64,000 nucleotides of DNA from an uncultured Acidobacteriota bacterium. Its GTDB lineage: Bacteria; Acidobacteriota; Terriglobia; Bryobacterales; UBA6623. The translations under genes and the position numbers were made by a program. This document shows, one piece after another, positions 19,313 to 35,814 of this stretch (position 1 is its first letter; each line of letters starts with the position of its first letter). Below the pieces are notes generated by a model. The model did no database searches, had not been told where the DNA came from, and saw nothing but the letters and a program-made list of their open reading frames with translations. The stretch spans positions 395,133-459,132 of the forward strand of contig CAWDWB010000007.1 of the NCBI GenBank assembly GCA_963805925.1, given 5' to 3'.

Positions 19313-19396
19313 CCCCTACGTCGGGCGTTGATAGACTTGTTGATTGGAGAGCGGCGTTGGGGTCCTCCCGGGACTCAACGTCATTTTTGTGTCGCC

Positions 19397-19952: not shown

Positions 19953-20172
19953 CCCGGGGCAGCGAATCGCGCTGTTTGCCTTAGTTGCGTATAAGAGTAT
20001 TCTTTCGCCGATATTGCCGTCTGCTTGCAAGTTCTATCCGACCTGTTCGATGTACGCTAGAGAAGCAGTTGAACGCCACGGCGTGATGAAGGGCTCGTGG
20101 CTGGCGGCTAAACGCCTGATCCGATGCCGCCCTTTCGCGCGCGGCGGATTCGACCCAGTCCCTGATGCCTGA
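19903..20172 (+). CDS. yidD: Membrane protein insertion efficiency factor YidD
   Basis: ..[58 protein letters not shown] is the YidD signature. The GTG start at 19903 is uncertain. Confidence 0.9.
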
Positions 20173-21898
20173 CAACGAGGAACAGTTCGTACAACGCCGC
20201 CTGCTGGTGGCGTCCCTTTTATCAGCGGTAGCCATGATGGGCTACTTCTACTTCTATCAGCCGCAAGGTTCGCCTTTGGTACAGCCGGCCGAGCAGGCGG
20301 TAGAAGCTCCCGCCGAGCAAGCCGAGGCGCCGCAGATGGCGCCGGCCGCAGCAGTCCCGGAAGCGGCGGCCGCGGAAGGCGAGCCAGTAGCGGCTCCCGC
20401 GCAGGCCGAGGCTGAGCGCGAGATTGTCGTCGAGACGGACACCTTCGAAGTGACCTTCTCCAATCGCGGCGGCGTCGTGAAGCGCTGGGTGTTGAAGGAC
20501 TATCAGGACGTTCGCGGCGAGCCGCTGGATCTGGTCCATCAAGCCGGAGCTGAAGCGCACGGCTATCCGTTCCGCTTGCAGTTGAGCGGCGGCGAGGCGG
20601 TGCCCGGCTTGGACGACGCCCTCTACGAAGTGAATGAAGGCCCGGATCGGCGCACGGGCGATGCGGTTGTCGAGTTTCATTACGCCGACGGCGTGCGCGA
20701 GGTTCGCAAGACGTTTCGTTTCCGCCGCGAAGGGTATGAGCTGGACGTTGAAACCGACCTGACGGAGAATGGCGCGCCGCGCATGCACTTGATCGCGTGG
20801 CCGGGCGGTTTTGGCGATACCGCTCACTTAAACGACCAGAACTACAGCACCGTATTCTATTGGGATCCGGCGGAAGGACTGGAGCGGAACAAAGCTTCCG
20901 CTGCTGAGGACGCCCGAATTACGAACCAGGGCGAGTATCCGTTTGCGGGCATCGACGACCTGTTTTTCACGGCCGTCTTTCGGGCCAGAGAAGCTCAACC
21001 CATGCAGGTGGAAACCGCGGCGATTGAGATCGACCCTTTGGTCCCCGACCGGGACGCATTGAAGATATTCGCGGCGACGGCCATCGGTTCTTCGACGGGC
21101 AACCAGTTTGAGTTATACGTCGGTCCCAAGAGCCTAAACGGCTTGCGCACTCTGGATAGCCGAATGGGCGATATCGTGAATTTCGGCTGGGCGGGATTCA
21201 TCGCCGAGCCGCTGTTCTTGATGCTGCAGTGGACGCATGCCAACGTGGTTGCGAATTGGGGTTGGTCGATCGTGTTAGTGACGATCGTGATCAATATCGC
21301 GCTCTTCCCGCTGAAGTGGAAGGGCAATAAGTCCCAGAAGCGCATGCAACAGATCCAACCGTTGATTAAGCAGATCAACGAGAAATACAAGGGTCTGAAG
21401 ATGAGCGACCCGAAGAAGCAGGGTCAGCAAGAAGAGACGATGGAGCTGTACAAGAAGTACGGCGTCAACCCTGTCGGCGGCTGCTTCCCGATGCTCTTGC
21501 AGATGCCGGTCTTCTATGGCTTTTACAGCCTGCTGACCCAGGTGATCGAGATGCGCGGCGCCGAGTGGCTTTTCGTGAGCGATCTATCGCAGCCGGAGCA
21601 TTGGCTGATCATCGGCGGCACCTCGATTCACGTGCTGCCTCTGTTGATGATGGCGACGCAGTTCTGGATGCAGACCTTAACGCCGATGCCGAGCGTCGAC
21701 CCGGCACAGGCGCGCATGATGAGATTCATGCCCTTGATGATGGGCTTTATCTTCTACGGGTTCCAGGCCGGGCTGGTGATATACTGGCTCACGATGAATT
21801 TGGTCGGCGTGGGTCAGCAGGTGTTGCTGAACAAGATGCCGGGCGAGGAACTCGAGATCGAGATTCCTGGCCGCAAGCCAAACCGCAAAAAGAAGTAA
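20165..21898 (+). CDS. yidC: Membrane protein insertase YidC
   Basis: 577 aa. N-terminal TM, periplasmic domain, and the conserved C-terminal core (..[51 protein letters not shown]..). The ATG overlaps the yidD stop. Confidence 0.95.
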
Positions 21899-21934: not shown

Positions 21935-22438
21935 ATGCCCGTGCAACCCTGGAATTTGGATAAGATCATCGACGATATCGATGAGTTCTTGGACGCCGTC
22001 CTGGACACGGCGGGGCTGGATCTCGACTACGAGATTCGCGAAGGAGGCGGGGACTCGGCGGAGCTGATTAGCCCGGACTTGACCGTCGATTTCAGCGGCG
22101 ACGATTTGCCCCTGCTGTTGGACCACCGCGCCGAACTGCTGTTGGCGTTGGAGCACCTGACGCTTGAGGCGCTCAAGATCTCGCACGATGACCGCTACCG
22201 CTTAATCTTCGATGCCGACGACTATCGGCTCATGCGCATCGAAGAGTTGCGCATGAGCGCCGAGGCGGCGGCAGAGAAGGTAGTCAAGTCGGGGCGGCCG
22301 TTCCACTTCCAGCCGATGACGTCGCGGGAGCGGCGCATCATTCACCTGACCTTGCGCGACAACAAAGACGTGATGACGACTTCCGAAGGCATGGCCCCAG
22401 GACGCCATACGGTCATCTACAAGGCCGACAAACGTTAG
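21935..22438 (+). CDS. jag: Jag/KhpB-like RNA-binding protein (KH-like + R3H), short form without Jag_N
   Basis: C-terminal R3H motif ..MTSRERRIIHLTLRDNKDVMTTSEGMAPGRHTVIY. Conserved position downstream of yidC. Confidence 0.8.
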   Translation: MPVQPWNLDKIIDDIDEFLDAVLDTAGLDLDYEIREGGGDSAELISPDLTVDFSGDDLPLLLDHRAELLLALEHLTLEALKISHDDRYRLIFDADDYRLMRIEELRMSAEAAAEKVVKSGRPFHFQPMTSRERRIIHLTLRDNKDVMTTSEGMAPGRHTVIYKADKR

Positions 22439-23238
22439 TTGTGGCCGGCGAGCGGCCAGGCGGCGCCTGCTGATTCTTCCCTGGCGAGCGTTATTTTGGC
22501 GGCGCGGCGGTTGCGCACGATGCCGATCTCAACAGAAGATGCGGCACGATGCATTTCGCGCCGGATATCCGCGGCATCCTCAACCGAGTTGCCTGCGACG
22601 CTGACGATAACGTCTCCGGCGACGAGGCCCGCTTTCGCGGCCGGGGAACCTTCTTCCACCGAGCGCACGAGCACGCCTTGCTTCACGCCGAAGTGTTTGG
22701 CGAGCTGGTCTTCGATGGCTTCCAGTTCCACGCCGAGCGAGCGATTGCGGACCACCGTCACGGCCCGGGGGAAGTCGAAGCCGAGGCCGGCTTGGCGCTT
22801 GAACTGCTCGGCGATATCGGTGGAGGTCGGCAAACCGCGAGTTTCGACGACGATATCGACGTCCCGCTTCTTGCCGTCCCGCCAGATTTCGAGTTGAACG
22901 GTCTGTCCGCCGGGGGTCTCGTGCACGAGTCGGGCTAGCTGCTCGGCGCCGAGGACTTGCTCATTGCGATAGCGGGTGATGACGTCGTCTCGTTGGAGGC
23001 CAGCCTCTTGGGCCGGGCCGCCCTCGGCGACTTGGGCGATCTCTACGCCGTGAATGTTGTCTAGCTTAAGCTGGCTAGCCTTCTCCGGAGTCAGGTCGAT
23101 GATACCGACGCCCAACCAACTTTGCGAGCCGGCTGCCGTCTGGGGCGGCGCGCCTTGGGCGGCGGTGTACAACGTAAACGGCGAGGCGGCCAATGCTAGC
23201 GATAAGGTCGCTTGGGCGATGCAAGTGTGCAGCGTCAT
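22435..23238 (-). CDS. Secreted protein with two PDZ domains
   Basis: Signal peptide. Two PDZ-like modules (..GVEIAQVAEGGPAQEAGLQRDDVITRY.. and ..GVLVRSVEEGSPAAKAGLVAGDVIVSVAG..). No protease domain is visible. Confidence 0.75.
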   Translation of the reverse strand: MTLHTCIAQATLSLALAASPFTLYTAAQGAPPQTAAGSQSWLGVGIIDLTPEKASQLKLDNIHGVEIAQVAEGGPAQEAGLQRDDVITRYRNEQVLGAEQLARLVHETPGGQTVQLEIWRDGKKRDVDIVVETRGLPTSTDIAEQFKRQAGLGFDFPRAVTVVRNRSLGVELEAIEDQLAKHFGVKQGVLVRSVEEGSPAAKAGLVAGDVIVSVAGNSVEDAADIRREMHRAASSVEIGIVRNRRAAKITLAREESAGAAWPLAGHN

Positions 23239-23244
23239 CCGAAG

Positions 23245-24438
23245 CTACTCCCTGCGGCGAATGTAGATCCGGCCGCTTGTGTTGCGGACTCGCAGAAGAG
23301 GACCGCCGCCGTTCAATTGGCCGGCGGCTTGGACGCCGCCGAAGCTGTCTCCGCGAGTGACCTGAATGTCAGGGAAGTCGCTCTCGATGCGCTGCAGGTT
23401 TCTGGCGAAGTCGACCATGGCGTCGATGGTGACGCGCATGTCCGCAGGCAAGAAAAGCACAATGGAGCCGGCGTTCGTCTCGATGAGCGAATCCATCATC
23501 TGGCGGTCAGAAATGAAATAGGCCTGCACGTTACCGGCGGCGCTGAGAGCGTAAACGCGTCCGGCGACGTCGTTGAGTTGGATGTCGCCGGATGCGGTTT
23601 CGGCGTGGATGCCGGCCGGAGCGCGGGCGACGCGAATGGCTCCGCCGGCGGTATCGAGGGTGACTTCGCCGCCTGCTTCGCCGACGACGATGGAGCCGCC
23701 GGAGGTCGCTGCGGCGATTTTGCCGCCGACAAACTTCGCTTCGATGTTGCCGCCGACGGTTTCCGCCTGCAAACGGCCGCGAACGTTGCCGACGCGGATG
23801 CCGCCGCCGGCGGAATTGAGAACGGCGTCGCCTCCGGAAGAGGTCAGCGCAATGGAGCCGCCGGCTGTTTCGCAGCGCACGTTTTTGCCGATAGCGCCGA
23901 GTTCAATGTTGCCGCCTCCGGTGGTGACCAATACGTCGCCGCCGATCCGGTCGAGAGTGATGGCGCCGCCGGCAGAGTCGGCGTTGACCCGACCGCGAAT
24001 ATCGCTGACATCGAGTTCGCCGCCACGGGTGACGATCACTGCATCAGTGATGGTCTGCGGGACGGTCATTTCGATCTCGGCGCGCATGCTGCAACGACCG
24101 CAGTTGACTTCGCCGATACCCAGTGTGGTGGTGTCGGCGCTGCTGGCAGCTCCCGCTTGCGCTTGCTGGAAATATTGGCGCGCTTCTTGTTCGTTGCTCG
24201 CCCGGACTTTCAAGAGAATTCGGTAAGCGACGGTTTGCGTATCGGAGCCGCGAACGGTGATTTCACCCAGAGCGCTGATGCGCAAACGCGGTCTGCCGGC
24301 GACTTCGCCCTGATAGGTCTGGGTGAAATAGCCGCCGTCTTTCACGATCGGCCCGCCCGTCGTCTGGGCGCCCAGCGGCGCGGCTAGGACGGCGAGGAAA
24401 CAGGCCGCACTCTGAAGTCTTCTTGTCGCTTGCAGCAA
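23245..24438 (-). CDS. DUF4097-type beta-helical repeat protein (putative adhesin-like)
   Basis: Signal peptide. Long run of GG.I.. repeats (..TTGGGNIELGAIGKNVRCETAGGSIALTSSGGDAVLNSAGGGIRVGNVRG..TSGGSIVVGEAGGEVTLDTAGGAIRV..) typical of DUF4097. Confidence 0.7.
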   Translation of the reverse strand: MLQATRRLQSAACFLAVLAAPLGAQTTGGPIVKDGGYFTQTYQGEVAGRPRLRISALGEITVRGSDTQTVAYRILLKVRASNEQEARQYFQQAQAGAASSADTTTLGIGEVNCGRCSMRAEIEMTVPQTITDAVIVTRGGELDVSDIRGRVNADSAGGAITLDRIGGDVLVTTGGGNIELGAIGKNVRCETAGGSIALTSSGGDAVLNSAGGGIRVGNVRGRLQAETVGGNIEAKFVGGKIAAATSGGSIVVGEAGGEVTLDTAGGAIRVARAPAGIHAETASGDIQLNDVAGRVYALSAAGNVQAYFISDRQMMDSLIETNAGSIVLFLPADMRVTIDAMVDFARNLQRIESDFPDIQVTRGDSFGGVQAAGQLNGGGPLLRVRNTSGRIYIRRRE

Positions 24439-24449
24439 AATCGAATTCC

Positions 24450-25406
24450 TCAGTACAACCCAATGGACGCATTGAGTTCGGCTAACGTTTGTTCGGAGCG
24501 CAGGCGCACGTAGCTGTTCGGCTCATCACGCACGACGTCTTGCAGCACCTCGACCAGTTCGCGGTCGGGGTGAGCAGTCAGCAATTCGATGGCGTTGACG
24601 CGCATGCCGGGGTTCGAGTCATTGCGCAGGGTCTTCATCAGCGCGTGACGGACGTCCATGTCTTCCTTGTAGGGGGCCAACGCTTCGAGAGCCTTCAAAC
24701 GGGCGCCGCCGTTTTCGTCTTCGAGCATGGCTTTGACCAGCGCTCCGCGCACTTGCGGGTCATCGGCGCGTTGGCGCAGCAGATCGATCATGTCCAGCCG
24801 CCGGCCGGAGTTGGAACTGCGCGACATGGCGATCAGTAGCGCTTGGATTTGCGGGTCGTTGGAGTTGCCGCGGATGGTGCGACGTTCTTCGACGACGATT
24901 TCCACCGAGGACGAACCGGGACCGGTGGAGACGGAACGCACGTCGGGGATGTCTTCGTAGGAAGCGAGCGCGGCGCCGTCTTTGGGAAGCGCACTTTGCT
25001 CAGCGACAGGCGGCTGGTCGGAGAAGGCCATGCGGAATTGCTGGGTGGCGCGTCCGCCCCAGAAGCCGGCGGCGACGAACAGCATCGCCAGGGCGCCTTG
25101 CCAGGCCAGGTTGGGCGCGGACGGAGTGAAGATGGAGCGCAAGCGGGCGCCCCAGGATTGCTGCTGGGCGACGATGGCCTCTTGGCGAATCGCCCGCATC
25201 AGGTCCATGCGGCAATCGGCGATTTCGGCGGGACTAAAATCAAGCGTCTCGCGCTGACGCAGCGTTTCGATGAGCAGACGTTCCTCTTCGACGACAGCCG
25301 CAAGGGTCGCCGAACGCCCCAACTCTTCCTCAAATTGCGTCTCGTCTTCGGCCGACAACTCGCCGTAGAGATAAAGACCGACTCGGTTTCTGATGTCTTC
25401 GCTCAT
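24450..25406 (-). CDS. Putative anti-sigma factor: N-terminal anti-sigma helix, one TM, C-terminal HEAT-like repeats
   Basis: Starts 1 nt after the ECF sigma stop. N-terminus ..VGLYLYGELSAEDETQFEEEL.., TM WQGALAMLFVAAGFWGG, C-terminus ..RLDMIDLLRQRADDPQVRGALVKAMLEDENGGARLKALEAL..NPGMRVNAIELL... Confidence 0.6.
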   Translation of the reverse strand: MSEDIRNRVGLYLYGELSAEDETQFEEELGRSATLAAVVEEERLLIETLRQRETLDFSPAEIADCRMDLMRAIRQEAIVAQQQSWGARLRSIFTPSAPNLAWQGALAMLFVAAGFWGGRATQQFRMAFSDQPPVAEQSALPKDGAALASYEDIPDVRSVSTGPGSSSVEIVVEERRTIRGNSNDPQIQALLIAMSRSSNSGRRLDMIDLLRQRADDPQVRGALVKAMLEDENGGARLKALEALAPYKEDMDVRHALMKTLRNDSNPGMRVNAIELLTAHPDRELVEVLQDVVRDEPNSYVRLRSEQTLAELNASIGLY

Positions 25407-26054
25407 CTAGGCCCTCGCATCCTGCAGAGCGGCTCGTAACTTGTGAGTCGCCCGGAACAGACTGTTCTTGGCTGCTTCTTCGCTGATTCCGACGGCCTCG
25501 CCGATGGCGCGCAGCCGCATGCCGTCGTAGTGGCGCAGTTCAAAGACGACGCGCTCATTGGGGGAAAGTTGTTCCAGAGCGGTCTCGATTCGGTCGGCCA
25601 GCGCTTGTCCTTCAAAGGCGCGGTCGGGGTTGCCTTCGACGCGCGGTTCTTGAGCGGCTTGCAAGGGGTTGAGGCCCCGGGCGTCGTCGCGGTCGTCGAC
25701 GCCGACTTCCTTGCGGACTCCCTTGCGCCGTAGCTGGTCCAAACAGACATTGGTCGTAATCCGGTAGAGCCAGGTGTGGAAGCTGCACTGGAAGCGGAAA
25801 GTATCGAGCTTCCGATAGGCCTTAAGAAAAGCTTCCTGATAGGCATCTCGCGCGTCCTCCGGGGAGCGCAACATATTCATCGCCAGCCGCAGGACTGAGC
25901 GCTCATACAGGCGCACCAACTCCTCGAAGGCGGCTGGGTCCTTCTTCTGGGCCGCTTCAATCAGCGCAGTTTCGCTGGGAGCGGCTGACTCAGGCTGGGT
26001 GCTGAGCCCGATCGATTCCGCATCGGCCAATTCCACGTGGTCTTGCCGGTTCAA
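25407..26054 (-). CDS. ECF-type RNA polymerase sigma-70 family factor
   Basis: Region 2 (..FEELVRLYERSVLRLAMNMLRSPEDARDAYQEAFLKAYRKLDTFR..FHTWLYRITTNVCLDQLRRK) and region 4 (..LSPNERVVFELRHYDGMRLRAIGEAVGISEEAAKNSLFRATHKLR). The start may be the GTG at 26036 rather than the TTG at 26054. Confidence 0.9.
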   Translation of the reverse strand: MNRQDHVELADAESIGLSTQPESAAPSETALIEAAQKKDPAAFEELVRLYERSVLRLAMNMLRSPEDARDAYQEAFLKAYRKLDTFRFQCSFHTWLYRITTNVCLDQLRRKGVRKEVGVDDRDDARGLNPLQAAQEPRVEGNPDRAFEGQALADRIETALEQLSPNERVVFELRHYDGMRLRAIGEAVGISEEAAKNSLFRATHKLRAALQDARA

Positions 26055-26189: not shown

Positions 26190-26500
26190 TCAGAAGGAAT
26201 CGCGGCCCGAATGCGACTTGTCGGAAGCTACTTGGGATGGAACGGCTAGCGCGTCGACCATGCCCCATTGCGCTCGTCCTAGTTGGGTGCTGCGACCCTG
26301 TGGGCTGAGACTGCCGACCAAACGTTCCTTTTCTTTCGCCGTCGCCTCAAGGCTCAAGAAGTTTTCGGCATGTTCCCCTGCAACTGAGGTCAGGACAACG
26401 ATATCGGGCCGGACGACCGCAGCGGCCCTCCACATGAGCCCTTACCGTCCATGGCACGACGCTGCTAGACGGCCTGGTATGCTCTGGGATCGACCGTGAA
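26190..26500 (-). pseudogene. Decayed fragment of a Mur-ligase-family gene (MurF/CapB/cyanophycin-synthetase-C-like central domain)
   Basis: An 81-aa ORF reads ..AAAVVRPDIVVLTSVAGEHAENFLSLEATAKEKERLVGSL... This resembles the Mur ligase segment ..P(D/E)I.V(I/L)TN(I/V)..(A/E)H...F.S.E.IA..K..(I/L)... An upstream TAA and a frame change (..AMDGKGSCGG.. in another frame) show that only a broken remnant is left. Confidence 0.4.
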
Positions 26501-26600
26501 GGCGGTCGCTACGTGATGCACGAATGCACCGAGATCAAGCATGTGTCATGGGGGCCGTAGGAAGGGTGCTGCTAGAGCCCTTGGATGTCAACCAGTTAAC

Positions 26601-27923
26601 ATGTCACTAATGAACAACACCGCGCGCCTCCTCGAACGTCGCAAGAATGCTGTTCCACGGGGGGTAGGCAGCTTTGCGGGGGAAACCTCCGCGGTCTCCG
26701 GTTCGGGCGCTCGGCTAACGGACGCCGACGGCAGGGAATTCATCGATTTTGCGGGTGGAATCGGCGTTGTGAATGCCGGTCATTGTCCCCCGGAAGTCGT
26801 CCAAGCGATCCAGGAACAGGCTGCGAAACTGCTGCACGCGTCCATTCACGTTGCCACCTACGAGCCGTATGTGGAGCTGTGCGAGAAGCTAAACGCTCTG
26901 CTGCCGCACGGCGATCACACCAAGACGATGTTGGTGAATTCGGGCGCCGAAGCGGTTGAAAACGCCGTCAAGATTGCCCGTCAAGCCACCGGCAAGAGCG
27001 CCGTTTTCTGCTATTCGGGCTCATTCCACGGGCGCACGATGATGGGCATGTCGTTGACGTCGAAAACTGCCTACAAGCTCGGTTGCGGTCCGTTCGCCCC
27101 GGAGGTCTATCGGCTCGACTTCCCCAACTACTACCACTTCAACGATGGGCTCTCTGAGCAGGATTTCTCCGATCGCGAGCTGGCCAAGTTTGTCGAAGCC
27201 TTCAGCATGTATGCGCCGGCGGAACATGTCGCCGCGGTGATTCTTGAAGTCGTGCAGGGCGAAGGCGGTTTCGCGCCGGTCCCCAAACGTTATCTGCAGG
27301 GCTTACGACAAATCTGCACGGAGCACAACATCCTGCTCATCCTCGACGAGGTCCAATCAGGCTTCTGCCGCACCGGGCGCTGGGCTGCCTACGAACACTA
27401 TGACGTCGTGCCCGACCTTTCGACTTGGGCCAAGTCCATGGGCAGCGGCATGCCGATTAGCGCCGTGATCGGGCGCGCCGAAATCATGGATGCCGCCCGC
27501 CCTGGTACGATCGGCGGCACCTACGGCGGTAATCCAGTCGCCTGCGCCGCTGCGCTAGCCACCATCCGCGTGATGGAGAAGCAAGACCTAAACGCGCGAG
27601 CCACAGTGATCGGCAATAAGATTCGAGCCCGTTTCGAGGCCCTCAAGGCGAAGGTTGACGTGATCGGCAATGTGCGCGGTTTGGGCGCGATGATCGGCAT
27701 GGAGTTCAGCTACAACCGCGACCCGACCAAACCAGCGGGCCCGGTAGTGGCGAAGGCCCTCAGCCTTGCCCGCGAGAAAGGCGTGTTGGCGCTGCCTTCG
27801 GGCGCACACGGCAATACGATCCGCACCTTATCGCCGCTGGTGATCTCGGACGCGGACCTAGATCGTGCTCTCGACGTAATTGAAGAATGTGTATTGGAAG
27901 CATCTAGGGGAACCACTGAATGA
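26601..27923 (+). CDS. Class-III PLP-dependent aminotransferase (GabT / omega-amine aminotransferase-like)
   Basis: ..DFAGGIGVVNAGHCPPEVV..NSGAEAVENAVKIAR..GSFHGRT..ILDEVQSGFCRTGRW..DLSTWAKSMGSGMPISAV..GGTYGGNP.. are canonical class-III motifs, including the PLP lysine. The likely start is the ATG at 26601 (MSLMNNTARLLERR..) rather than 26541. Confidence 0.9.
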   Translation: MSLMNNTARLLERRKNAVPRGVGSFAGETSAVSGSGARLTDADGREFIDFAGGIGVVNAGHCPPEVVQAIQEQAAKLLHASIHVATYEPYVELCEKLNALLPHGDHTKTMLVNSGAEAVENAVKIARQATGKSAVFCYSGSFHGRTMMGMSLTSKTAYKLGCGPFAPEVYRLDFPNYYHFNDGLSEQDFSDRELAKFVEAFSMYAPAEHVAAVILEVVQGEGGFAPVPKRYLQGLRQICTEHNILLILDEVQSGFCRTGRWAAYEHYDVVPDLSTWAKSMGSGMPISAVIGRAEIMDAARPGTIGGTYGGNPVACAAALATIRVMEKQDLNARATVIGNKIRARFEALKAKVDVIGNVRGLGAMIGMEFSYNRDPTKPAGPVVAKALSLAREKGVLALPSGAHGNTIRTLSPLVISDADLDRALDVIEECVLEASRGTTE

Positions 27924-28807
27924 CGCCGTTCGCCATTGCAGGCATGCAGCTCCACGTATCGGCTGTTCACGACAACGTGGCCTACATGAAGGCGCGACTC
28001 GATCTATTGATGCACATCTACCCTTGGGTACAGATGGTGGTCTTCAGCGAGTTGGCCGCCTTCGGTCCCTCGACCAAGCGCGCGCAGCGGCTCCCTGGGC
28101 CGGCGGAAGACGAGTTCCGCGACATGGCTGCTCGTCACGGCATTTGGCTGCTTCCGGGCACTCTATTCGAGCGCGACGGCGAGCACGTCTACAACACGGC
28201 CTCAGTCATCAATCCTGAAGGCGAGGTTGTCGGGCGCTATCGCAAGATCTTTCCGTTCCGGCCCTACGAGTTGGATGTCACGGCCGGCGATGAGTTTTTG
28301 GTGTTCGACGTCCCGGAAGTGGGCCGTTTCGGTGTGTCGATCTGCTACGACATGTGGTTCCCCGAAACCTCTCGCACATTGGCTGCGATGGGCGCCGAAG
28401 TCTTGTTGCATCCGACGCTGACAGGCACCATAGACCGCGAAGTTGAGTTGTCGATTGTACGCGCGACGGCCGCGCAGCAACAGTGCTTCATGTTCGACAT
28501 CAACGGCTCAGGAGATGGCGGCAACGGGCGGTCCATTATTGTCGGCCCTTACGGAGATGTGCAGTATCAAGCCGGTCACGCCGAAGAGATGATCCCGATT
28601 GAGATCGACCTCGACCGCGTCCGGCGCAGCCGAGAAGTCGGCCTTCGCGGCCTAGGCCAGCCGCTTAAGAGCTTCCGCGACAGGAACGTGCGCTTTCCCG
28701 TCTACGGCGACAACCCCACCGTCGGGGGCTATTTCGATTCGTTGGGGCCCCTGAGCAAACCCCACCGAGGCTCGACGGCAGGCCTGAAGAAGAGGGAGAC
28801 GGAATGA
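27920..28807 (+). CDS. Carbon-nitrogen hydrolase (nitrilase superfamily amidase)
   Basis: The Glu-Lys-Cys triad is visible (..VVFSELAAFG.., ..GRYRKIFPF.., ..GVSICYDMWFPE..). The start overlaps the upstream stop (ATGA). Confidence 0.85.
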   Translation: MTPFAIAGMQLHVSAVHDNVAYMKARLDLLMHIYPWVQMVVFSELAAFGPSTKRAQRLPGPAEDEFRDMAARHGIWLLPGTLFERDGEHVYNTASVINPEGEVVGRYRKIFPFRPYELDVTAGDEFLVFDVPEVGRFGVSICYDMWFPETSRTLAAMGAEVLLHPTLTGTIDREVELSIVRATAAQQQCFMFDINGSGDGGNGRSIIVGPYGDVQYQAGHAEEMIPIEIDLDRVRRSREVGLRGLGQPLKSFRDRNVRFPVYGDNPTVGGYFDSLGPLSKPHRGSTAGLKKRETE

Positions 28808-31572
28808 CGTTTAGGGAAAAGCGAAAATTGTTAGGCGAGAAGGCTTTTCGTGCCTACTACGACGCTTCGCAGTTTCGCACCGACGCTTGGAACGAGTTGA
28901 AGGTCGTCGTAGCGAAACTCGCGCAACAAAAGGAGCCGGATAGCGAGAAGACAGCGGACCTCAACCAGACTGTGGCCAACACCCTGGAGGTGCTCGAGGG
29001 AGTCGAAAACTACTGGGCCTTCCCTGGTGATCGCACGGTAAAGAAGCTTCGGACCGCTCTGAAGCGCGGCTGGAATCAGTCGTTGAAGCTCGACGTGGAC
29101 CGCATCGCGCGCTTGCTCGATAACGATGCTTACCGCCGCCGCGATCAAAGCGACATCTTTCGCGAGATTGAGGAGCACGAGGCCGCTCAGAAGGTAATCG
29201 ATGAAGACCGGGCGGTCGTCATTGAAAAACGACCTTATTTCGAACTCCTCGTTGTCGATCGATTGTCCCCCCGAGAGGAAGACGAGCTGCGGACAAGCTT
29301 GCTGGCCTTGCGACGGGATGACGATGCCTTCATCTACGACATTGTGGTGGTTCCCAGTTGTGAAGACGCCGTTATCGCGACGCTTTTCAATCACAACATT
29401 CAGTGTTGCTTGCTGCGGTATGGCTTCGACGCCCGCTCGCAGGCCAAGATTCCAGAACTACGAGCCTACCTCGATCAAGCTGACCCGGGCTTGCTGGCAG
29501 ACTGCGATGACGACGGTTATGTCGAGTTGGCCAATGTGCTCAAGGAACTGCGACCCGAGCTCAATCTCTTCCTGGTTACGGACGATTCGGTGGAGAATAT
29601 CGTCGCCCGCTCGGGAGGGATCTTTGATCGCATGTTCTATCTTGCCGAGGACTACCTGGAGTTACACCTCAGCATCCTCAAAGGCATTGATTCGCGCTAC
29701 GACACGCCGTTCTTTACGGCTCTAAAAGACTATAGTGCAAAGCCCACCGGCGTCTTTCATGCCTTGCCGATCTCCCGCGGCAAGACAATCGCCAAGTCTC
29801 ATTGGATTAAAGATATGGGCGACTTCTACGGTCGCAATATCTTCCTGGCCGAAACGTCGTCCACGACCGGCGGACTGGACTCTTTGCTGCAACCGACCGG
29901 CCCTATCAAAGAGGCTCAAATCAAGCTCGCCCGAGCTTACGGCGCACGCCAGAGCTACTTCGTGACGAATGGCACTTCAACCGCCAACAAGATCGTCATG
30001 CAGGCGCTGTGCCAACCCGGCGACATCGTGCTCGTCTCTCACGACTGCCACAAATCGCACCCCTACGCGATTCTGCTGAGCGGCGCTTTACCGGTCTATC
30101 TGGACCCCTACCCGCTTCCGCGATACACCATGTACGGCGGTGTGCCGCTTCGGCTCATCAAAGAAAACCTGCTCAAGCTCAAGAGAGCCGGAAAGCTGGA
30201 CCAAGTTCGCCTGCTGCTGCTGACGAATTGCACCTTTGACGGCGTTGTCTATAACCCGCTGCGGGTCATGCGCGAAGTTCTAGCGATTAAGCCAGACATG
30301 GTTTTTGTCTGGGATGAGGCATGGTTTGCGTTTGCCCGTTTCGCGCCTGCATATCGCCGACGCACAGGCATGTGGGCCGCAGGCCGTCTCCGTCGACTAC
30401 TGAAGAGCGACTCTTACGCGAAAGAATACGCCGCATGGGAAGAGACTTTCTCCGCCCTCGATCCCGAGGATGACGCGACCTGGCTTGACCAGGAGTTAAT
30501 GCCGGACCCCAGCAAGGCGCGGGTGCGCGTGTACGTCACACAGTCCACGCACAAAACGCTCACGTCATTCCGCCAGGGGTCGGTCATTCACGTCTACGAC
30601 CAAGACTTCGCGCGCAAGTCAGAGGGCGCTTTCGAGGAAGCGTATATGACGCACACCTCAACCTCCCCGAACTACCAGATTCTGGCTTCGCTCGACGTCG
30701 GACGCCGTCAGGTAGAACTTGAGGGCTACGAATTCGTCAAGAAGGCGGTTGAGTTGGCGATGTCCCTGCGGGAGCGTATCGAAGACAATCCGCAGCTCAA
30801 TCGCTGGTTTAAACTGCTGCGGGTCAGAGACATCATTCCGGCCGAGTATCGCTCTTCCGGTTTGGATCAATTCTATAGCCCCGATACGGGTTTCACGCGC
30901 ATGGAGCATGCCTGGCGCGACGATGAGTTCGCCTTGGACCCGCAGCGAGTAACGGTGGAAGTCGGAGGAGCCGGACTCGAAGGCGACGTGTTCCGTAGGA
31001 TCCTGATGGACCGCTTCGACATCCAGATCAACAAGACTTCTCGCAATACGGTCCTATTCATGCTCAACATCGGCACCACGCGAGGAGCAATTGCCTACCT
31101 GCTCGAAGTGCTGGGCAAGCTCGCGAGCGAGTTGGATGAAGAAGCCGAAGAGTGCAGCCCGATGGAGCAACGTCTATTCGATCAGAGCGTCGACAGGCTC
31201 ACCAAGCAGCTCCCGCCGCTGCCTCTATTCAGCCGTTTCCATAAAGCCTTTCGGCCCGATCCAACCGGCGACACGCCGGAAGGTGATCTGCGCACGGCGT
31301 TCTTCTTGGCCTACGACGAAGAAAAGTGCGAGTACCTCATGATGGACGGTACAGTCGCGCAAGCGATGGCCGAGGGCCGCGAGGTCGTCTCGGCCACCTT
31401 CGTGACGCCATACCCGCCCGGCTTCCCCGTTCTCGTCCCGGGTCAAGTCATCAGCGAGGGGATCTTGAGCTACCTTAAGGCCCTCGACGTGAAAGAAATT
31501 CACGGATACAACCCGCAGTTCGGTCTGCACGTGTTCCGGCAGAGCGCTCTGGATGCGCTCGCTCCGTCATGA
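28804..31572 (+). CDS. Fold-type I Orn/Lys/Arg decarboxylase family protein (922 aa) with extended N-terminus
   Basis: Major domain ..FHALPISRGK..SYFVTNGTSTANKIVMQA..DCHKSH..LLLLTNCTFDGVVYN..VYVTQSTHKTLTSFRQGS.. (S-x-H-K PLP lysine). A receiver-like 'wing' is at about aa 150-290. An extra ~140-aa helical N-terminal segment is present. The start overlaps the upstream stop (ATGA). Confidence 0.85.
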   Translation: MTFREKRKLLGEKAFRAYYDASQFRTDAWNELKVVVAKLAQQKEPDSEKTADLNQTVANTLEVLEGVENYWAFPGDRTVKKLRTALKRGWNQSLKLDVDRIARLLDNDAYRRRDQSDIFREIEEHEAAQKVIDEDRAVVIEKRPYFELLVVDRLSPREEDELRTSLLALRRDDDAFIYDIVVVPSCEDAVIATLFNHNIQCCLLRYGFDARSQAKIPELRAYLDQADPGLLADCDDDGYVELANVLKELRPELNLFLVTDDSVENIVARSGGIFDRMFYLAEDYLELHLSILKGIDSRYDTPFFTALKDYSAKPTGVFHALPISRGKTIAKSHWIKDMGDFYGRNIFLAETSSTTGGLDSLLQPTGPIKEAQIKLARAYGARQSYFVTNGTSTANKIVMQALCQPGDIVLVSHDCHKSHPYAILLSGALPVYLDPYPLPRYTMYGGVPLRLIKENLLKLKRAGKLDQVRLLLLTNCTFDGVVYNPLRVMREVLAIKPDMVFVWDEAWFAFARFAPAYRRRTGMWAAGRLRRLLKSDSYAKEYAAWEETFSALDPEDDATWLDQELMPDPSKARVRVYVTQSTHKTLTSFRQGSVIHVYDQDFARKSEGAFEEAYMTHTSTSPNYQILASLDVGRRQVELEGYEFVKKAVELAMSLRERIEDNPQLNRWFKLLRVRDIIPAEYRSSGLDQFYSPDTGFTRMEHAWRDDEFALDPQRVTVEVGGAGLEGDVFRRILMDRFDIQINKTSRNTVLFMLNIGTTRGAIAYLLEVLGKLASELDEEAEECSPMEQRLFDQSVDRLTKQLPPLPLFSRFHKAFRPDPTGDTPEGDLRTAFFLAYDEEKCEYLMMDGTVAQAMAEGREVVSATFVTPYPPGFPVLVPGQVISEGILSYLKALDVKEIHGYNPQFGLHVFRQSALDALAPS

Positions 31573-31602
31573 ACCGACTGCCCAACCAAGAAAAGGATTC
31601 CT

Positions 31603-33066
31603 ATGAAGACACTGCACGGCATTTCCGACATCAGACGCTACTTCTACCAGAACACCACGCCGACCTACTTCGTCTCCGCGACGAACTTCAACTTGCTGGG
31701 CATGGACGAGTGGGTTCGGAACTTCAAGTTCATCAGCTACATCGACTGCTTTGACGGAGCGCACCCCAACGTCATCACGCCGTCGCAGAAAACCGATCAA
31801 GTCTTCAATTCCATCGAAGAGATCAACAACTATCTGCTTGAGCACAAAGAGATCGTCGATTACATCAAGTCTCGTGGTCCAGGCGGTCGCGTGGTCTTCC
31901 TCATGTTCGACGAGCGAACCGAAGAACTAGCCAAAGAGTTGGGTCTTGAAGTCTGCTTCCCGCCGGCTGCGTTGCGCGAGGCCGTCGACAACAAGATCGA
32001 GACCACCCGCATCGGCGATGAAGCAGGCGTGCCTAGCGTGCCCAACTGGCTCGGCAAGGTCGAGAGCTACGAGAAGATGCGCGAGTTGGCCCAGAAGGCC
32101 GGGCTTGGCGACCGCGTCGTGATTCAATCCGCTTTCGGCGACTCCGGACACACGACGTTCTTTATCGCCTCGAAAGAGGACTATCAGAAACACGCCGAAG
32201 AGATCGAGAAAGAGCGGGAAGTCAAGATCATGAAATGGATCAAGCCCCGCGGCTCGGCGCTTGAGGCTTGTGTGACGCGCCACGGAACCATCGTTGGTCC
32301 GCTGATGACCGAGCTGGTGGGATTCAAGGAACTAACGCCCTACAAAGGCGGCTGGTGCGGCAACGAGGTCTTCGCCGGGGCCTTCTCGGCAGATCAGCGG
32401 CGAAAGGCCCGCGAGTACACGTTCCAGTTCGGCGAGGCGCTTCGCAAGCGTGGTTACCGCGGCTACTTCGAGGTCGATTACTTGCTCGACGAGGATTCCG
32501 GCGAACTGTATCTCGGCGAAGTGAATCCCCGCATCACCGGCGCCAGTTCAATGACCAACCTCGCCTCCTTCGCGCAAGCCGATGCTCCGCTGTTCTTGTT
32601 CCACTTGCTAGAGTTTTCGGGCGTCGACTTTGAACTGGATGTGGAAGAGCTGAATGAGCGCTGGGCGGACCCAGACAACGTCGATTCCTGGTCGCAACTC
32701 GTCGTCAAACATACTCGCGATACGGTGGAGTTCATCAACGAGGCTCCACGTACCGGAATCTGGAAGCTTCACGAGGATGGAACCACGGAGTTCCGGCGCA
32801 CCCAGACTCATCGCCGCACCGTGGAAGACGAGAGCGAAGCCTTCTGGCTGCGTATCTCCGACGTCGGGGACTACTTTTATGAAGGCGCCGATCTCGGCAT
32901 CCTCGTCACGCCAGGCCGCCTCATGACGGACGACTTCCAACTCACTGACCGCGCTAAAGCCTGGATTCACGGGATTCGTAACCAGTACCGCGCACGCCCT
33001 CTGCAGGCTACCGAAACGACCGCGGCTGAGCGCGTCGCGGAAGTCGCTGGCTTTAAGCTCCTTTAG
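31603..33066 (+). CDS. ATP-grasp domain ligase (carboxylate-amine ligase-like) with N-terminal pre-ATP-grasp-like region
   Basis: ..AALREAVDNKIETTRIGDEAGVPSVPN..VVIQSAFGDSGHTTFFI..KIMKWI..GWCGNEV..GYRGYFEVDYLLDEDSGELYLGEVNPRITGASSMTN.. shows the ATP-grasp fold including the E-x-N Mg/ATP site. Substrates are unknown. Confidence 0.8.
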   Translation: MKTLHGISDIRRYFYQNTTPTYFVSATNFNLLGMDEWVRNFKFISYIDCFDGAHPNVITPSQKTDQVFNSIEEINNYLLEHKEIVDYIKSRGPGGRVVFLMFDERTEELAKELGLEVCFPPAALREAVDNKIETTRIGDEAGVPSVPNWLGKVESYEKMRELAQKAGLGDRVVIQSAFGDSGHTTFFIASKEDYQKHAEEIEKEREVKIMKWIKPRGSALEACVTRHGTIVGPLMTELVGFKELTPYKGGWCGNEVFAGAFSADQRRKAREYTFQFGEALRKRGYRGYFEVDYLLDEDSGELYLGEVNPRITGASSMTNLASFAQADAPLFLFHLLEFSGVDFELDVEELNERWADPDNVDSWSQLVVKHTRDTVEFINEAPRTGIWKLHEDGTTEFRRTQTHRRTVEDESEAFWLRISDVGDYFYEGADLGILVTPGRLMTDDFQLTDRAKAWIHGIRNQYRARPLQATETTAAERVAEVAGFKLL

Positions 33067-33073
33067 CCCGCTC

Positions 33074-34093
33074 ATGCACCTCCGCTTCCGCAGCGTCAGC
33101 GAAATGCAGCCGGGCAAGCACACCCAGCGACGCTTTGAACGTCTCTGGCCGGACATGCGCGCCTGGTTTTTGCGGGAAGGCGAGGGCGCTCGGCCGGGAT
33201 ACGTCAGTTGCCGTCGAGCGCTTGAGCAGTACATGCCCGAGTTGCTGCCCTTGTGGGGCCGCCTGTGTGACCTCGTGGGGGGCGGCGATCAGGAGGCGCG
33301 CATGCTCAGTCTTTACCGCCCGACACCCTACATGAGCGGGTGTTCGCAGGCGGTTTGGACGCGCGATCCATGCCCTCTTCTTGCCCGCAACTACGATTAC
33401 CATCCCCTTCACTGCGAGGGCACGATCCTGCTGAGCAAGTGGCACGGGGTCAAGACGATCGTGCAGACGGACTGTCTCTGGGGCGCTCTCGACGGGATGA
33501 ATGAGTATGGGTTGGTCGTCTCCTTGGCTTTCGGCGGCAGCCAAACCGTCGGCGACGGTTTTGGCATCCCGCTCGTCCTGCGATACATCCTGGAGTTTTG
33601 TAAGGATGTCGATGAGGCCCGTGCGGTGTTGATGCGCGTGCCGTCTCACATGGCCTACAACGTCATGGCCGTCGACCCCTCCGGCCGATTCATCAACGCA
33701 CATGTTTACCCTGGCCGTGAGACGCTCTTCGCCAATAGCGCCGCGGCGACGAACCATCAGAGCGAGGTCGAATGGGCTCGCCACGCAGAGGTTACTGACA
33801 GTGTGGGACGGGAGCAGTACCTCCGAGAACAGCTCGATTCGCCGACACTGAACCGAGGACGGTTCGCCGACCAATTCCTCGAATCACCGCTCTACAACAC
33901 GCGATGGGCCGAAGGCTTCGGCACCCTCTACACCGCTGTTTACGACCCGTTGGAGAAGTCCGTTGAATACCGCTGGCCTAGCCATACCTGGCAGTTGAAC
34001 TTCGACAGCTTCGCTGAGTCGACGTTGCTCCTGCGGGCCCGGAAGGCCACAGCAGAAGCACCCCAGGCGGGTTTGGCGATTGACGGATATTGA
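33074..34093 (+). CDS. Peptidase C45 / acyl-CoA:6-APA acyltransferase-like Ntn amidohydrolase
   Basis: 339 aa. ..PTPYMSGCSQAVWTRD..LLARNYDY..DGMNEYGLVVSL..AYNVMAVDPSG.. resembles the C45/choloylglycine-type Ntn hydrolase pattern with a putative nucleophile Cys in SGCS. Confidence 0.65.
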   Translation: MHLRFRSVSEMQPGKHTQRRFERLWPDMRAWFLREGEGARPGYVSCRRALEQYMPELLPLWGRLCDLVGGGDQEARMLSLYRPTPYMSGCSQAVWTRDPCPLLARNYDYHPLHCEGTILLSKWHGVKTIVQTDCLWGALDGMNEYGLVVSLAFGGSQTVGDGFGIPLVLRYILEFCKDVDEARAVLMRVPSHMAYNVMAVDPSGRFINAHVYPGRETLFANSAAATNHQSEVEWARHAEVTDSVGREQYLREQLDSPTLNRGRFADQFLESPLYNTRWAEGFGTLYTAVYDPLEKSVEYRWPSHTWQLNFDSFAESTLLLRARKATAEAPQAGLAIDGY

Positions 34094-34233: not shown

Positions 34234-35814
34234 TCACTCGGGCCGCGATATCGACAGATCGAATACCGAAGAGCGTCCGACTTGCCGGTCGGGATTGTCC
34301 TCGCCGAAGCCATGCTCGGAATTCCAGGCTTGGATCTCGCTCACGGACATCCTCGCGAACCAAGCGTCATAGTAGGGTCTCTCGGCCTTGTCCATCAGCT
34401 CGTTCAGCTGTCCCCAGAGCCTTTTGCGAACGTCGAGATAGGCGGGATTGGTCAACAGGTTCTTGTCCTGGTAGCCATTACCGTTCTTCCACAGCCGGTG
34501 CTCGCCCCGATCCGTCACGGCGTATGTGTAATCGTCTGTCACGATCGCCCGCCAGATGATCTCGTGGCGGCTGCCGCGGTTGTTCATGTTCGAAGGGTGC
34601 GCCATATAAACTGGACCAGGCTTGGCGGCGTCCGGCTGGCCCCGCAGCAGCGGCGCAAGATCGGTCCCGGGGAGCGATGCGATGTAATCTGCGGATTCAG
34701 ACGCCTGCGGCGTTCCAGCTTCTGCCAGTCGACCCTCAAGCCCGGCGAGCGAGGCCAGCGTCGGGAAGACGTCGATGGTCGAGGTCGGCCTGTCGATCAC
34801 CGCATCTGCCGGCAGCCGACCCGGCCAGCGGATCAGGAAGGGCACGCGCGCTGACTCGTCGTTGGGGTGTCGCTTCTGTCCGTAGGCGACGCCGTCGATC
34901 CCCGTCATTGCGCCATGGTCGGAGGTGTAGATGAGGATCGTATCCTCTGCGATTCCCAGCTCGTCGAGCCGTGTCATCACTCGCGCTAGGTCGTCATCGA
35001 TGCCGCTGACAAGCGCGTGGTAGTCACGGTGCTGATCGAAATCGCGAATCTCGTCAAGCGGATGAAAGGGCAACTCCTTCTCGCTCGGATACAACGCCTT
35101 TTTCTCTTCGGGCGCGTCATCAAACGGGCCATGCGGGGGGTTGAGCGAGATCACCGCAAAGAAGGGAGCAGGGTCTTGCGAGACTTGTCCGATCCACTCG
35201 AGCGCCTGTTCGGTCATCGCGGCGGCATTCGATTCGCCTGTCCAGATCTGCGGCTCGCCGCCATCGACGATGTAGGGGTTCCTTCTGTGGTTGTTGGTAT
35301 CGTTCCAGACAATTGAGCGATCGAAGCCGAATGGGCGAGCGTCACTGCCGCCCAGGTGCCATTTGCCAAAATGCCCTGTGCGGTATCCGGCATCCTTGAA
35401 GGCCCAGCTCATCGTGCCGCGCGTCTGCTTGCCTTCGGGCATGTCAACTCGCTCGGCAAGGTGCATGTGGTTTGCCATCAAGCCCTGCTGATAAGGCCAG
35501 TGCCCTGTCATCATGAGCGCACGGTAGGGCGTACAGAGGGGTAGATTGACGTAGTAGCGCTGCAGCGAGACGCCCTCCGTCTTCAGTCGCTCCATCGCCG
35601 GCGTTTGGACCTGCGGAGTCTGAGTAAACGACATTGCGCCCCAGCGATGGGTGTCGCTCTGAACGTACACGACGTTCGGAGCCCTCTCGGGCGGCGGTCC
35701 GCTGCAAGCCAGCAAAGCTCCCGACAGCGCACTGAGCACAACCAGAAGCCCGGTAGGCAAATCACGCCTGATGCCGGCGAATCGTCTGTTTGTCAAATGG
35801 TCGCGCGGGTCCAT
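34234..35814 (-). CDS. Cys-type sulfatase (arylsulfatase family), probable lipoprotein
   Basis: ..VYVQSDTHRW.., FGly motif LPLCTPYRALMMTG (C-x-P-x-R), ..GKWHLG.., ..LIYTSDHGA... N-terminal ..GALLACSG lipobox. Confidence 0.9.
   Translation of the reverse strand: MDPRDHLTNRRFAGIRRDLPTGLLVVLSALSGALLACSGPPPERAPNVVYVQSDTHRWGAMSFTQTPQVQTPAMERLKTEGVSLQRYYVNLPLCTPYRALMMTGHWPYQQGLMANHMHLAERVDMPEGKQTRGTMSWAFKDAGYRTGHFGKWHLGGSDARPFGFDRSIVWNDTNNHRRNPYIVDGGEPQIWTGESNAAAMTEQALEWIGQVSQDPAPFFAVISLNPPHGPFDDAPEEKKALYPSEKELPFHPLDEIRDFDQHRDYHALVSGIDDDLARVMTRLDELGIAEDTILIYTSDHGAMTGIDGVAYGQKRHPNDESARVPFLIRWPGRLPADAVIDRPTSTIDVFPTLASLAGLEGRLAEAGTPQASESADYIASLPGTDLAPLLRGQPDAAKPGPVYMAHPSNMNNRGSRHEIIWRAIVTDDYTYAVTDRGEHRLWKNGNGYQDKNLLTNPAYLDVRKRLWGQLNELMDKAERPYYDAWFARMSVSEIQAWNSEHGFGEDNPDRQVGRSSVFDLSISRPE

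Follow-up and report, generated by a model that had tools for sequence, protein, structure and literature searches.

What do five tightly packed genes accomplish for an uncultured Acidobacteriota bacterium when, taken together, they fit no textbook pathway? The genes lie in a stretch of 64,000 nucleotides (positions 395,133 to 459,132 of contig CAWDWB010000007.1, assembly GCA_963805925.1), hereafter called the window, and encode a class III aminotransferase, a CN hydrolase, a long-form decarboxylase dependent on pyridoxal phosphate (PLP), an ATP-grasp ligase and a C45-family hydrolase (Table 1). Our favoured answer, to which we give a probability of roughly 55%, is that the cassette is a module for the production, conjugation and turnover of 4-aminobutyrate (GABA), in which GABA would be formed from glutamate, conjugated at the expense of ATP, turned over by cysteine hydrolases and drained to succinate.

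A co-directional cassette conserved across phyla

The five open reading frames (ORFs) share the plus strand and follow one another closely. The stop codon of the aminotransferase gene overlaps the start of the CN hydrolase gene, and the decarboxylase gene begins in the same manner: the junction sequence GAATGACG is found at 27920 and again at 28804, giving ATGA stop/start overlaps at 27920-27923 and 28804-28807. Intergenic gaps of 30 nt (31573-31602) and 7 nt (33067-33073) separate the decarboxylase from the ligase and the ligase from the C45 gene, respectively. A first-pass annotation of the same DNA had described this arrangement, which the ORFs and junction sequences bear out, and had named the five families and their catalytic residues, with which Pfam, NCBIfam and the ortholog alignments agree. 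The aminotransferase frame can be opened as far upstream as 26541. Because this longer ORF enters the remnant of an upstream gene (gabD, see below) and DNA homology begins at 26610, we place the start codon at 26601 or 26610. DNA likeness to the closest relative, an Acidobacteriota metagenome-assembled genome (MAG), is confined to positions 26610-34020, and the flanks are unrelated; since the similarity stops at the edges of the block, the five genes appear to move as a unit.

We scanned one genome per species with the ATP-grasp protein, which gave at least 590 carriers, and examined the best 80 loci, in which the cassette genes were located by tblastn with the five window proteins. The ATP-grasp homologs number more than 6,000 and are 63-91% identical across phyla. 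The closest relatives are Acidobacteriota MAGs, and the best 80 loci further represent Myxococcota, Planctomycetota, Gemmatimonadota, Chloroflexota, Verrucomicrobiota, Sumerlaeota, Eiseniibacteriota, and Alpha- and Gammaproteobacteria. The decarboxylase was found in 76/80 loci and stands directly upstream of the ligase in 74/80, while C45 was found in 69/80 and directly downstream of the ligase in 67/80. The CN hydrolase is likewise present in 69 of the 80 loci and the aminotransferase in 52, and 57 loci have the CN hydrolase, decarboxylase, ligase and C45 genes in colinear order. Many of the loci that lack a complete cassette are shortened contigs. The full cassette also occurs on a Bacteroidota plasmid (Chondrinema litorale) and on plasmid p1 of Roseobacter ponti. 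As the same genes recur in the same order across many phyla, the arrangement is more than chance, and the earlier claim of a single co-directional cassette shared between phyla stands. The gene structure, its conservation, the family memberships and the conservation of catalytic residues are matters of direct observation.

Table 1. Coordinates of the cassette genes and of the upstream gene remnant in the window
Feature	Position	Strand	Remarks
gabD (succinate-semialdehyde dehydrogenase), 3' remnant, about 28 codons and stop	26471-26557	+	left breakpoint of the conserved block
Aminotransferase, class III, GabT-like	26601-27923	+	alternative start 26610
CN hydrolase, nitrilase superfamily	27920-28807	+	E44-K109-C142 triad
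PLP decarboxylase, long form, Orn/Lys/Arg superfamily	28804-31572	+	predicted Rv2531c-type L-glutamate decarboxylase, 922 aa
ATP-grasp ligase, NF005096/PRK06524	31603-33066	+	predicted GABA-conjugating, related to Rv1722 (GabtS)
C45-family Cys-Ntn autoproteolytic hydrolase/acyltransferase	33074-34093	+	predicted nucleophile Cys90 after Gly89

Long antisense and out-of-frame ORFs overlie the five genes on both strands (27710-33874), for example one of 273 aa on the minus strand at 33053-33874. These were rejected as genes: their clustering across genomes is the mirror image of the conserved coding strand in G+C-rich DNA. An Rfam scan of the whole window returned no family, and promoter-like and terminator-like sites were no commoner than in shuffled sequence, which makes them uninformative on internal transcription units.

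Predicted formation and drainage of GABA

The 922-aa decarboxylase carries the Pfam domains PF01276 (OKR_DC_1) and PF03711, and its residues 12-918 align with residues 13-903 of the 947-aa PDB entries 9n0n/9n0o (E = 4e-253, 845 bits), whereas the canonical lysine, arginine and ornithine decarboxylases in PDB score only 94-199 bits. The two entries are named 'probable amino acid decarboxylase', and 9n0o is the Mycobacterium tuberculosis protein Rv2531c (PMC13506015). This 'long form' enzyme, which has an extra N-terminal domain, decarboxylates L-glutamate and not lysine, ornithine or arginine, and it supplies most of the cellular GABA (PNAS, August 2026; PMC13506015). The window protein has the same four-domain architecture, including the extra N-terminal domain, and shares with Rv2531c 46% identity across 889 aligned positions, rising to 62% in the catalytic core. 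Its residues H416, K417, K584 (the PLP lysine), R590, T620, R731 and N743 correspond to Rv2531c H405, K406, K570, R576, T606, R718 and N731; they are kept in 74-76 of the 76 cassette orthologs, with lysine or arginine at position 731. The NCBIfam models for LdcC/CadA, AdiA and SpeC/SpeF were not reached (214, 177, 168, 157 and 150 bits against cut-offs of 968, 1056, 1167, 794 and 1310). On this homology the window decarboxylase is most likely an L-glutamate decarboxylase of the Rv2531c type, from which no diamine is expected.

Cassette carriers include an Enhygromyxa species and a Litchfieldella species, the latter formerly placed in Halomonas. Enhygromyxa and Halomonas are among the genera in the Rv2531c cluster (PMC13506015). 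Public annotation of the long decarboxylase varies between 'aminotransferase class I/II-fold PLP-dependent enzyme' and 'ornithine decarboxylase'. In the closest relative (Acidobacteriota MAG MFD05684.bin.1.257, loci L001/L004, 7201-9970) the gene is represented by two overlapping ORFs of 465 and 476 aa, owing either to a frameshift or to faulty assembly. Rhizobial plasmids, namely Rhizobium leguminosarum p3 (L087, 6150-11727) and Sinorhizobium meliloti SM11 pSmeSM11c (L090), carry a more distant pair of decarboxylase and ligase genes (44-56% identity), and on R. leguminosarum p3 the C45 gene is cut short beside IS30 and ISNCY transposases.

The second enzyme of the predicted route is the aminotransferase, which matches PF00202 (Aminotran_3) with 411 bits. 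Its best NCBIfam models are all GabT, with scores just below their cut-offs (TIGR00700, 489.5 bits against 506.65; PRK06918, 495.7 against 676), and GABA aminotransferases (GabT/PuuE) account for all 13 of its best PDB matches, led by E. coli GabT (1sf2, 377 bits). RefSeq uses the name gabT for the cassette orthologs in C. litorale and R. ponti, and annotates a succinate-semialdehyde dehydrogenase (SSADH) in C. litorale too. By these resemblances the window enzyme is classified as GabT-like, that is, as a putative 4-aminobutyrate:2-oxoglutarate transaminase.

The first-pass annotation had remarked on the lack of an aldehyde dehydrogenase (ALDH), which is correct for this genome and wrong for its relatives. 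An Aldedh gene accompanies the cassette in the first three neighbourhoods examined. In L001 and L002 it directly precedes the aminotransferase gene, and in the third it lies on the opposite strand at a distance of a few genes. The proteins of the first two score above the cut-off of the SSADH model TIGR01780 (652.8 and 651 bits against 646.35). In the window, the short segment ahead of the aminotransferase aligns by tblastn with residues 422-449 of the L001 protein at 71% identity; its frame-0 translation ends in SGIDREGGRYVMHECTEIKHVSWGP before the stop codon, and the relative's gene ends in SGIGREGGKYVMDEYTEIKYVSWGL. Judging from this alignment, gabD has been deleted from the window genome except for its last codons, about 28 in number.

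Decarboxylase, aminotransferase and SSADH together make up a GABA shunt, and because the decarboxylase is of the Rv2531c type, the aminotransferase GabT-like and the partner dehydrogenase an SSADH, we take the amine of the pathway to be GABA. The decarboxylase would turn L-glutamate into GABA, as its homology to Rv2531c suggests, and the aminotransferase would convert GABA and 2-oxoglutarate to succinate semialdehyde and glutamate. In the relatives the adjacent SSADH would finish the shunt to succinate; here its gene is reduced to the remnant.

The same evidence bears on the model first put forward for this locus, which resembles the Puu pathway of E. coli: a diamine would be made by the decarboxylase, protected with an acyl or aminoacyl group by the ligase, transaminated at its free end, and deprotected by the Ntn and CN hydrolases. 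Such a protect/deprotect logic employs all five enzymes, the decarboxylase does fall in the Orn/Lys/Arg superfamily, PuuE is among the best PDB matches of the aminotransferase, and a PuuR-like regulator (160.6 bits, below the cut-off of 211) occurs with some cassettes. Against it, Rv2531c is inactive on lysine, ornithine and arginine and its glutamate-recognition residues are kept here, the diamine-forming models score 150-214 bits against cut-offs of 794-1310, the partner ALDH is an SSADH and not of the PuuC type, and the ligase, C45 and CN hydrolase occur also without such a decarboxylase. We therefore regard this already disfavoured model as very improbable, and the diamine that it took as its starting point is not borne out. 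The chemistry proposed by the first-pass annotation was wrong in its central step, though the finding itself is real and non-trivial. A route through agmatine and N-carbamoylputrescine was dropped as well, for lack of a deiminase and because the decarboxylase does not belong to the arginine decarboxylases.

The ATP-grasp ligase and its partner hydrolases

The ligase matches PF02786/PF02655 and passes NF005096 with 771.2 bits (cut-off 684). Public records always name it 'biotin carboxylase'. Biotin carboxylase domains and PurK come nearest in fold to its AlphaFold2 model (mean predicted local distance difference test score, pLDDT, 89.6), with an identity of 11-16% and a template-modelling (TM) score of about 0.6. 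In an alignment with MCC-alpha, EMNTRLQVEH of the latter faces EVNPRITGAS of the window protein, so that the two Mg-binding residues (E and N) and the R after them are kept and 'TGAS' stands in place of 'QVEH'. The glutamate within QVEH is E296 of E. coli biotin carboxylase. Pfam families for biotin carriers and carboxyltransferases are absent from all annotated neighbourhoods, a genome-wide search for them not having been made. Because QVEH is absent, identity is low and carrier or carboxyltransferase partners are lacking nearby, 'biotin carboxylase' is a label at the level of the fold and not of the function.

A functional lead comes from M. tuberculosis, where the ATP-grasp protein Rv1722 (GabtS), long annotated as a 'possible carboxylase', joins GABA to trehalose with ATP to give the ester 6'-GABA-trehalose (bioRxiv 10.64898/2026.04.15.718621, April 2026). 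Among the blastp matches of Rv1722 in Table S1 of that preprint, which were filtered for 50% identity or more, is a protein of M. barrassiae (E = 2.8e-168). NF005096 is passed by the 'biotin carboxylase' P0447 of M. barrassiae (737.6 bits) and by an Arthrobacter member (735.5 bits), and the window ligase is 50% identical to P0447 over 474 residues (E = 7e-170). This indirect chain places the window ligase very probably in the Rv1722 family, in a clade other than the actinobacterial one. The first-pass annotation had the ligase form an amide bond; this is not supported, as the only characterised relative makes an ester to trehalose. The ligase would activate the GABA carboxylate with ATP and join GABA to an acceptor, which is possibly not trehalose.

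The ligase is also found in settings other than the decarboxylase cassette (type I). In Thiofilum flexile and on plasmids of Shinella zoogloeoides and a Roseateles species, orthologs of the ligase, C45 and CN hydrolase (60-66%, 45-50% and 52-58% identical to the window proteins, respectively) occur without the long decarboxylase (L043, T. flexile, 8843-21134; L089, S. zoogloeoides plasmid, 656-14933; also L091). This second (type II) operon encodes an amino-acid permease, an agmatinase-family ureohydrolase, an ALDH, a D-amino-acid dehydrogenase, a racemase and a 5-guanidino-2-oxopentanoate decarboxylase (770 bits against a cut-off of 500). On the two plasmids the racemase is followed by RidA, and both plasmid copies have a universal stress protein. 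The operon corresponds to the arginine dehydrogenase/transaminase route, which leads through 4-guanidinobutyrate to GABA and urea. GABA is most plausibly the product shared by the two contexts, in both of which genes for universal stress proteins recur. In Actinobacteria, the ligase is followed not by C45 but by a beta-lactamase-fold hydrolase of family PF00144 (M. barrassiae, L084, 10001-12877; Arthrobacter sp. CJ23, L086, 10001-12783). The two PF00144 proteins are 70% identical to each other, and this partner was seen only in these two genomes. As a hydrolase adjoins the ligase here too, in a different fold, the ligase-hydrolase pair is a recurring unit. Upstream of the ligase, Arthrobacter sp. 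CJ23 also has gene pairs for a CN hydrolase and a flavin amine oxidase. In M. tuberculosis, rv1722 adjoins Rv1723, a 'probable hydrolase' of the beta-lactamase fold.

With these contexts in view, a reading of the ligase as a biotin-independent carboxylase of the PurK/biotin carboxylase type can be weighed. It would form an N-carboxy or ureido intermediate that the CN and C45 hydrolases break, for example in the removal of guanidino or ureido groups. The database name, the nearest folds, the weak but best NCBIfam match of the CN hydrolase to N-carbamoylputrescine amidase and the urea yielded in the type II context would suit it. The exchange of 'QVEH' for 'TGAS', the lack of a biotin carrier or carboxyltransferase gene in any neighbourhood examined, the main (type I) context, which yields neither urea nor a guanidino compound, and the demonstration that Rv1722 is a ligase leave it with next to no likelihood. 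Carboxylase-like degradation of urea or guanidine was dropped for similar reasons, as the main context is without urea and the biotin carboxylase motif is absent. We also dropped a pairing of glutaminase with amidoligase, which nothing supports, and a LysW-type carrier-protein pathway, for which there is no carrier ORF.

The C45 protein matches PF03417 (AAT, 109 bits) and NF040521 (171 bits, cut-off 85). Its C90 is invariant in 73/73 orthologs, preceded by glycine in 58/73 and otherwise by alanine or serine; R105 and D108 are invariant and N106 and N227 nearly so, giving an R105-N106-x-D108 motif. A sequence search of PDB gave no match for C45. The fold closest to its AlphaFold2 model (pLDDT 93.9) is that of Penicillium isopenicillin-N acyltransferase (IAT; TM 0.66-0.70), with further matches to NAAA, acid ceramidase and bile-salt hydrolases. 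These structural relatives are Cys-Ntn enzymes, all of which cleave or exchange N-acyl groups. By its score, its predicted Gly-Cys cleavage site and the IAT-like fold of the model, the protein can be assigned to MEROPS family C45. The CN hydrolase matches PF00795 with 114 bits and keeps its catalytic triad in the orthologs (E44 in 67/69, K109 and C142 in 69/69). It reaches no NCBIfam equivalog, the best being AguB with 84 bits against a cut-off of 410, and its best PDB relatives are the archaeal nitrilase PH0642, Nit2, formamidase and N-carbamoylputrescine amidase. Within the GABA module, the two hydrolases are proposed to free GABA from its conjugate, to transacylate it, or to hydrolyse a related GABA or glutamate amide, and the module as a whole would buffer, store and finally burn GABA.

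The acyltransferase relatives of both hydrolases allow a further alternative, a dedicated GABA-derived small molecule such as a signal, osmolyte or antimetabolite. The ligase would make an activated GABA ester, from which C45 (IAT-like) and/or the CN hydrolase (Lnt-like) would transfer GABA to an amine acceptor, with GabT and SSADH merely trimming the precursor pool. The nitrilase superfamily includes the N-acyltransferase Lnt. This proposal agrees with the acyltransferase nature of the closest C45 fold (IAT, TM about 0.68), with Lnt among the weak NCBIfam matches of the CN protein (62.7 bits), with the conserved ligase-hydrolase pairing and with the unusual conservation of the ligase (63-91% across phyla). 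It fits poorly with a block that has no exporter, tailoring enzyme or resistance gene, with the position of the cassette among catabolic genes and uptake systems, and with the arginine catabolic operon that forms the type II context; we hold it to be rather improbable.

The main rival to the GABA module is the uptake and catabolism of an external amide, peptide or ester of glutamate or GABA, such as an opine-like dipeptide, a gamma-glutamyl compound or a derivative carrying an N-acyl or N-carbamoyl group. Glutamate or GABA freed by C45 and the CN hydrolase would pass to the decarboxylase, GabT and SSADH, and the ligase would activate or re-ligate during breakdown. Uptake systems often adjoin the cassettes, as does a PuuR-like HTH-cupin repressor. 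APC permeases occur beside 10 loci and TAXI-TRAP systems beside 10; the Novipirellula cassette is flanked by an SSF symporter and the PuuR-like regulator (160.6 bits, under the cut-off), and that of R. ponti by two family-5 binding proteins and Dpp/Opp components. In addition, the catalytic residues of both hydrolases are intact, cleavage or exchange of N-acyl amides is common to all structural relatives of C45, and GabT and SSADH are catabolic enzymes. However, an ATP-consuming ligase is unusual for simple hydrolytic catabolism, and the sole biochemical datum on the ligase family is synthetic (GABA and trehalose). The transporter families vary from genome to genome and none is encoded in this window; in NCBIfam typing the neighbouring permeases and binding proteins did not reach a GadC or GabP assignment and match only generic amino-acid and peptide transporters. 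As no specific family match points to a candidate substrate either, we consider this explanation unlikely.

Several points weigh against the GABA module itself. The CN hydrolase has no assigned step in it, and a synthetase and a hydrolase for one conjugate in one operon amount to a futile cycle unless regulated. Uptake and catabolism would explain the transporters beside some cassettes (APC, TAXI-TRAP, SSF, Dpp/Opp) no less well than internal buffering. The K0.5 of Rv2531c for glutamate is 509 mM (PMC13506015), so that another substrate may suit this enzyme better than free glutamate. The link from the window ligase to Rv1722 runs through one intermediate, P0447, presumed to be MCV7300379.1. 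Of the 130 positions invariant in the clade of the window ligase, 37 differ in the actinobacterial clade, with fixed changes such as E36R, C223V, F323G, R404W, M441Q and W454L; given these clade-specific substitutions and an identity of about 50%, the acceptor and even the donor could differ from those of Rv1722. The partner hydrolase of the ligase differs between the clades as well (C45 or PF00144), and the GabtS work is a preprint with enzyme assays at n=1 (bioRxiv 10.64898/2026.04.15.718621). Glutamate decarboxylation and GABA-trehalose ligation are established for the homologs; we infer that these activities carry over to the window's clade, and we likewise infer the acceptor and the roles of both hydrolases.

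A search of the accessible literature for the gene combination and the family names found no description of the cassette and nothing beyond the two 2026 papers, neither of which (PMC13506015; bioRxiv 10.64898/2026.04.15.718621) cites the gene of the other or analyses gene neighbourhoods. The cassette as a whole is undescribed, and in this the earlier view of a system outside the textbooks is upheld; by the criterion which that annotation had set itself, its complete novelty is weakened by the relationship of the decarboxylase and the ligase to enzymes characterised in 2026 and known from M. tuberculosis. The fallback of the first-pass annotation, which amounts to a small conjugate carrying an amine, for instance with a role as osmolyte or in stress, comes close to the GABA conjugate favoured here.

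The glutamate decarboxylase Rv2531c and the GABA-trehalose synthetase Rv1722, discovered independently in 2026, have homologs encoded side by side in a cassette whose conservation extends from Acidobacteriota to Bacteroidota. Both genes, listed as 'arginine decarboxylase' (Rv2531) and 'carboxylase' (Rv1722), appear in list A of Table 2 among genes horizontally acquired by the M. tuberculosis lineage (Veyrier et al. 2009, PMC3087520). The adjacency lends genomic support to both 2026 assignments. GABA-trehalose has been regarded as unique to mycobacteria and its breakdown pathway was left open (bioRxiv 10.64898/2026.04.15.718621); the cassette challenges the claim of a GABA conjugate confined to mycobacteria, and its C45, CN hydrolase and PF00144 neighbours are concrete candidates for conjugate breakdown. 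It also exposes a systematic misannotation in the database names of the ligase and the decarboxylase. Cultured, non-pathogenic carriers suited to work on the system include C. litorale, R. ponti, Enhygromyxa salina, a Novipirellula species and S. zoogloeoides.

A bolder proposal, which we advance tentatively and at somewhat less than even odds, is that the trio of CN hydrolase, ATP-grasp ligase and C45 makes and turns over a new GABA conjugate, an ester or amide with an acceptor other than trehalose, in hundreds of species of at least 10 phyla. Coupled to glutamate decarboxylation or to arginine breakdown, it would serve as a widespread buffer against stress or between nitrogen and carbon. The breakdown enzyme so far missing would be C45 or, in Actinobacteria, the neighbour with the beta-lactamase fold, and Rv2531c and Rv1722 would be the scattered remains of a horizontally acquired operon. 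If so, GABA conjugation would be a widespread bacterial system and no mycobacterial peculiarity.

The flanks of the cassette hold other functions. Upstream, an unrelated unit on the opposite strand (22435-26054) encodes an ECF sigma factor (25407-26054), an anti-sigma factor with zf-HC2 and HEAT repeats (24450-25406), a DUF4097 protein and a double-PDZ protein. Downstream, a sulfatase gene on the minus strand (34234-35814) converges on the end of the C45 gene; the C45-sulfatase junction is also present on a short Logan contig (ERR11594398), which carries an identical C45 protein.

Comparison with known systems

The biotin carboxylase/PurK branch offers the nearest solved fold over the full length of the ligase and shares the EVNPR Mg-binding residues. 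It differs in its low identity (11-16%), in the missing QVEH motif and in the missing carrier and carboxyltransferase, and the characterised member of the ligase family is a carboxylate-hydroxyl ligase. Isopenicillin N acyltransferase (MEROPS C45), bile-salt hydrolase, NAAA and acid ceramidase resemble the C45 protein in the fold of the model, including the pro-segment, and in the Gly-Cys site, the R-N-x-D motif and the Asn. Sequence identity to these Cys-Ntn enzymes is 15-16%, and the cassette has no enzyme that forms a CoA thioester.

The Puu system of E. coli (PuuA/B/C/D/E and PuuR) resembles the predicted module in that a metabolite bearing an amine is conjugated at the expense of ATP and then acted on by a cysteine hydrolase. 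Further likenesses are a GabT paralog (PuuE), an end point at succinate semialdehyde and, in some cassettes, a PuuR-like regulator. In contrast, the cassette and its relatives are without a PuuA of the glutamine-synthetase type, as had been noted at the outset, and without the oxidase PuuB, a PuuC-type ALDH (the relatives' ALDH score 284-342 bits against the PuuC cut-off of 850) and a PuuD of the class-I amidotransferase type. The cassette decarboxylase would feed GABA and not a diamine into the pathway, and the ligase and hydrolases have unrelated folds.

The GABA shunt of M. tuberculosis (the 'cloaked' glutamate decarboxylase Rv2531c, GabT and GabD1/D2; PMC13506015) is also comparable. The decarboxylases are alike in their four domains, their length of roughly 920-950 aa, the PLP lysine, the H-K pair and the residues R576, T606, R718 and N731, and a GabT-like transaminase and, in the relatives, an SSADH are encoded beside the cassette decarboxylase. 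Rv2531c is Mg2+-dependent and cooperative. The Rv2531c gene stands alone, whereas the cassette decarboxylase is translationally coupled to the CN hydrolase and followed by the ligase and C45. Rv1722 (GabtS) differs from the window ligase by about 50% identity between their clades, by the fixed substitutions and, in Actinobacteria, by a beta-lactamase-fold neighbour in place of C45. Both are ATP-grasp proteins annotated as 'carboxylase' or 'biotin carboxylase', the window protein and P0447 pass the same NF005096 model, and the context of the cassette ligase, with a predicted glutamate decarboxylase directly upstream and GabT nearby, suits GABA as the substrate.

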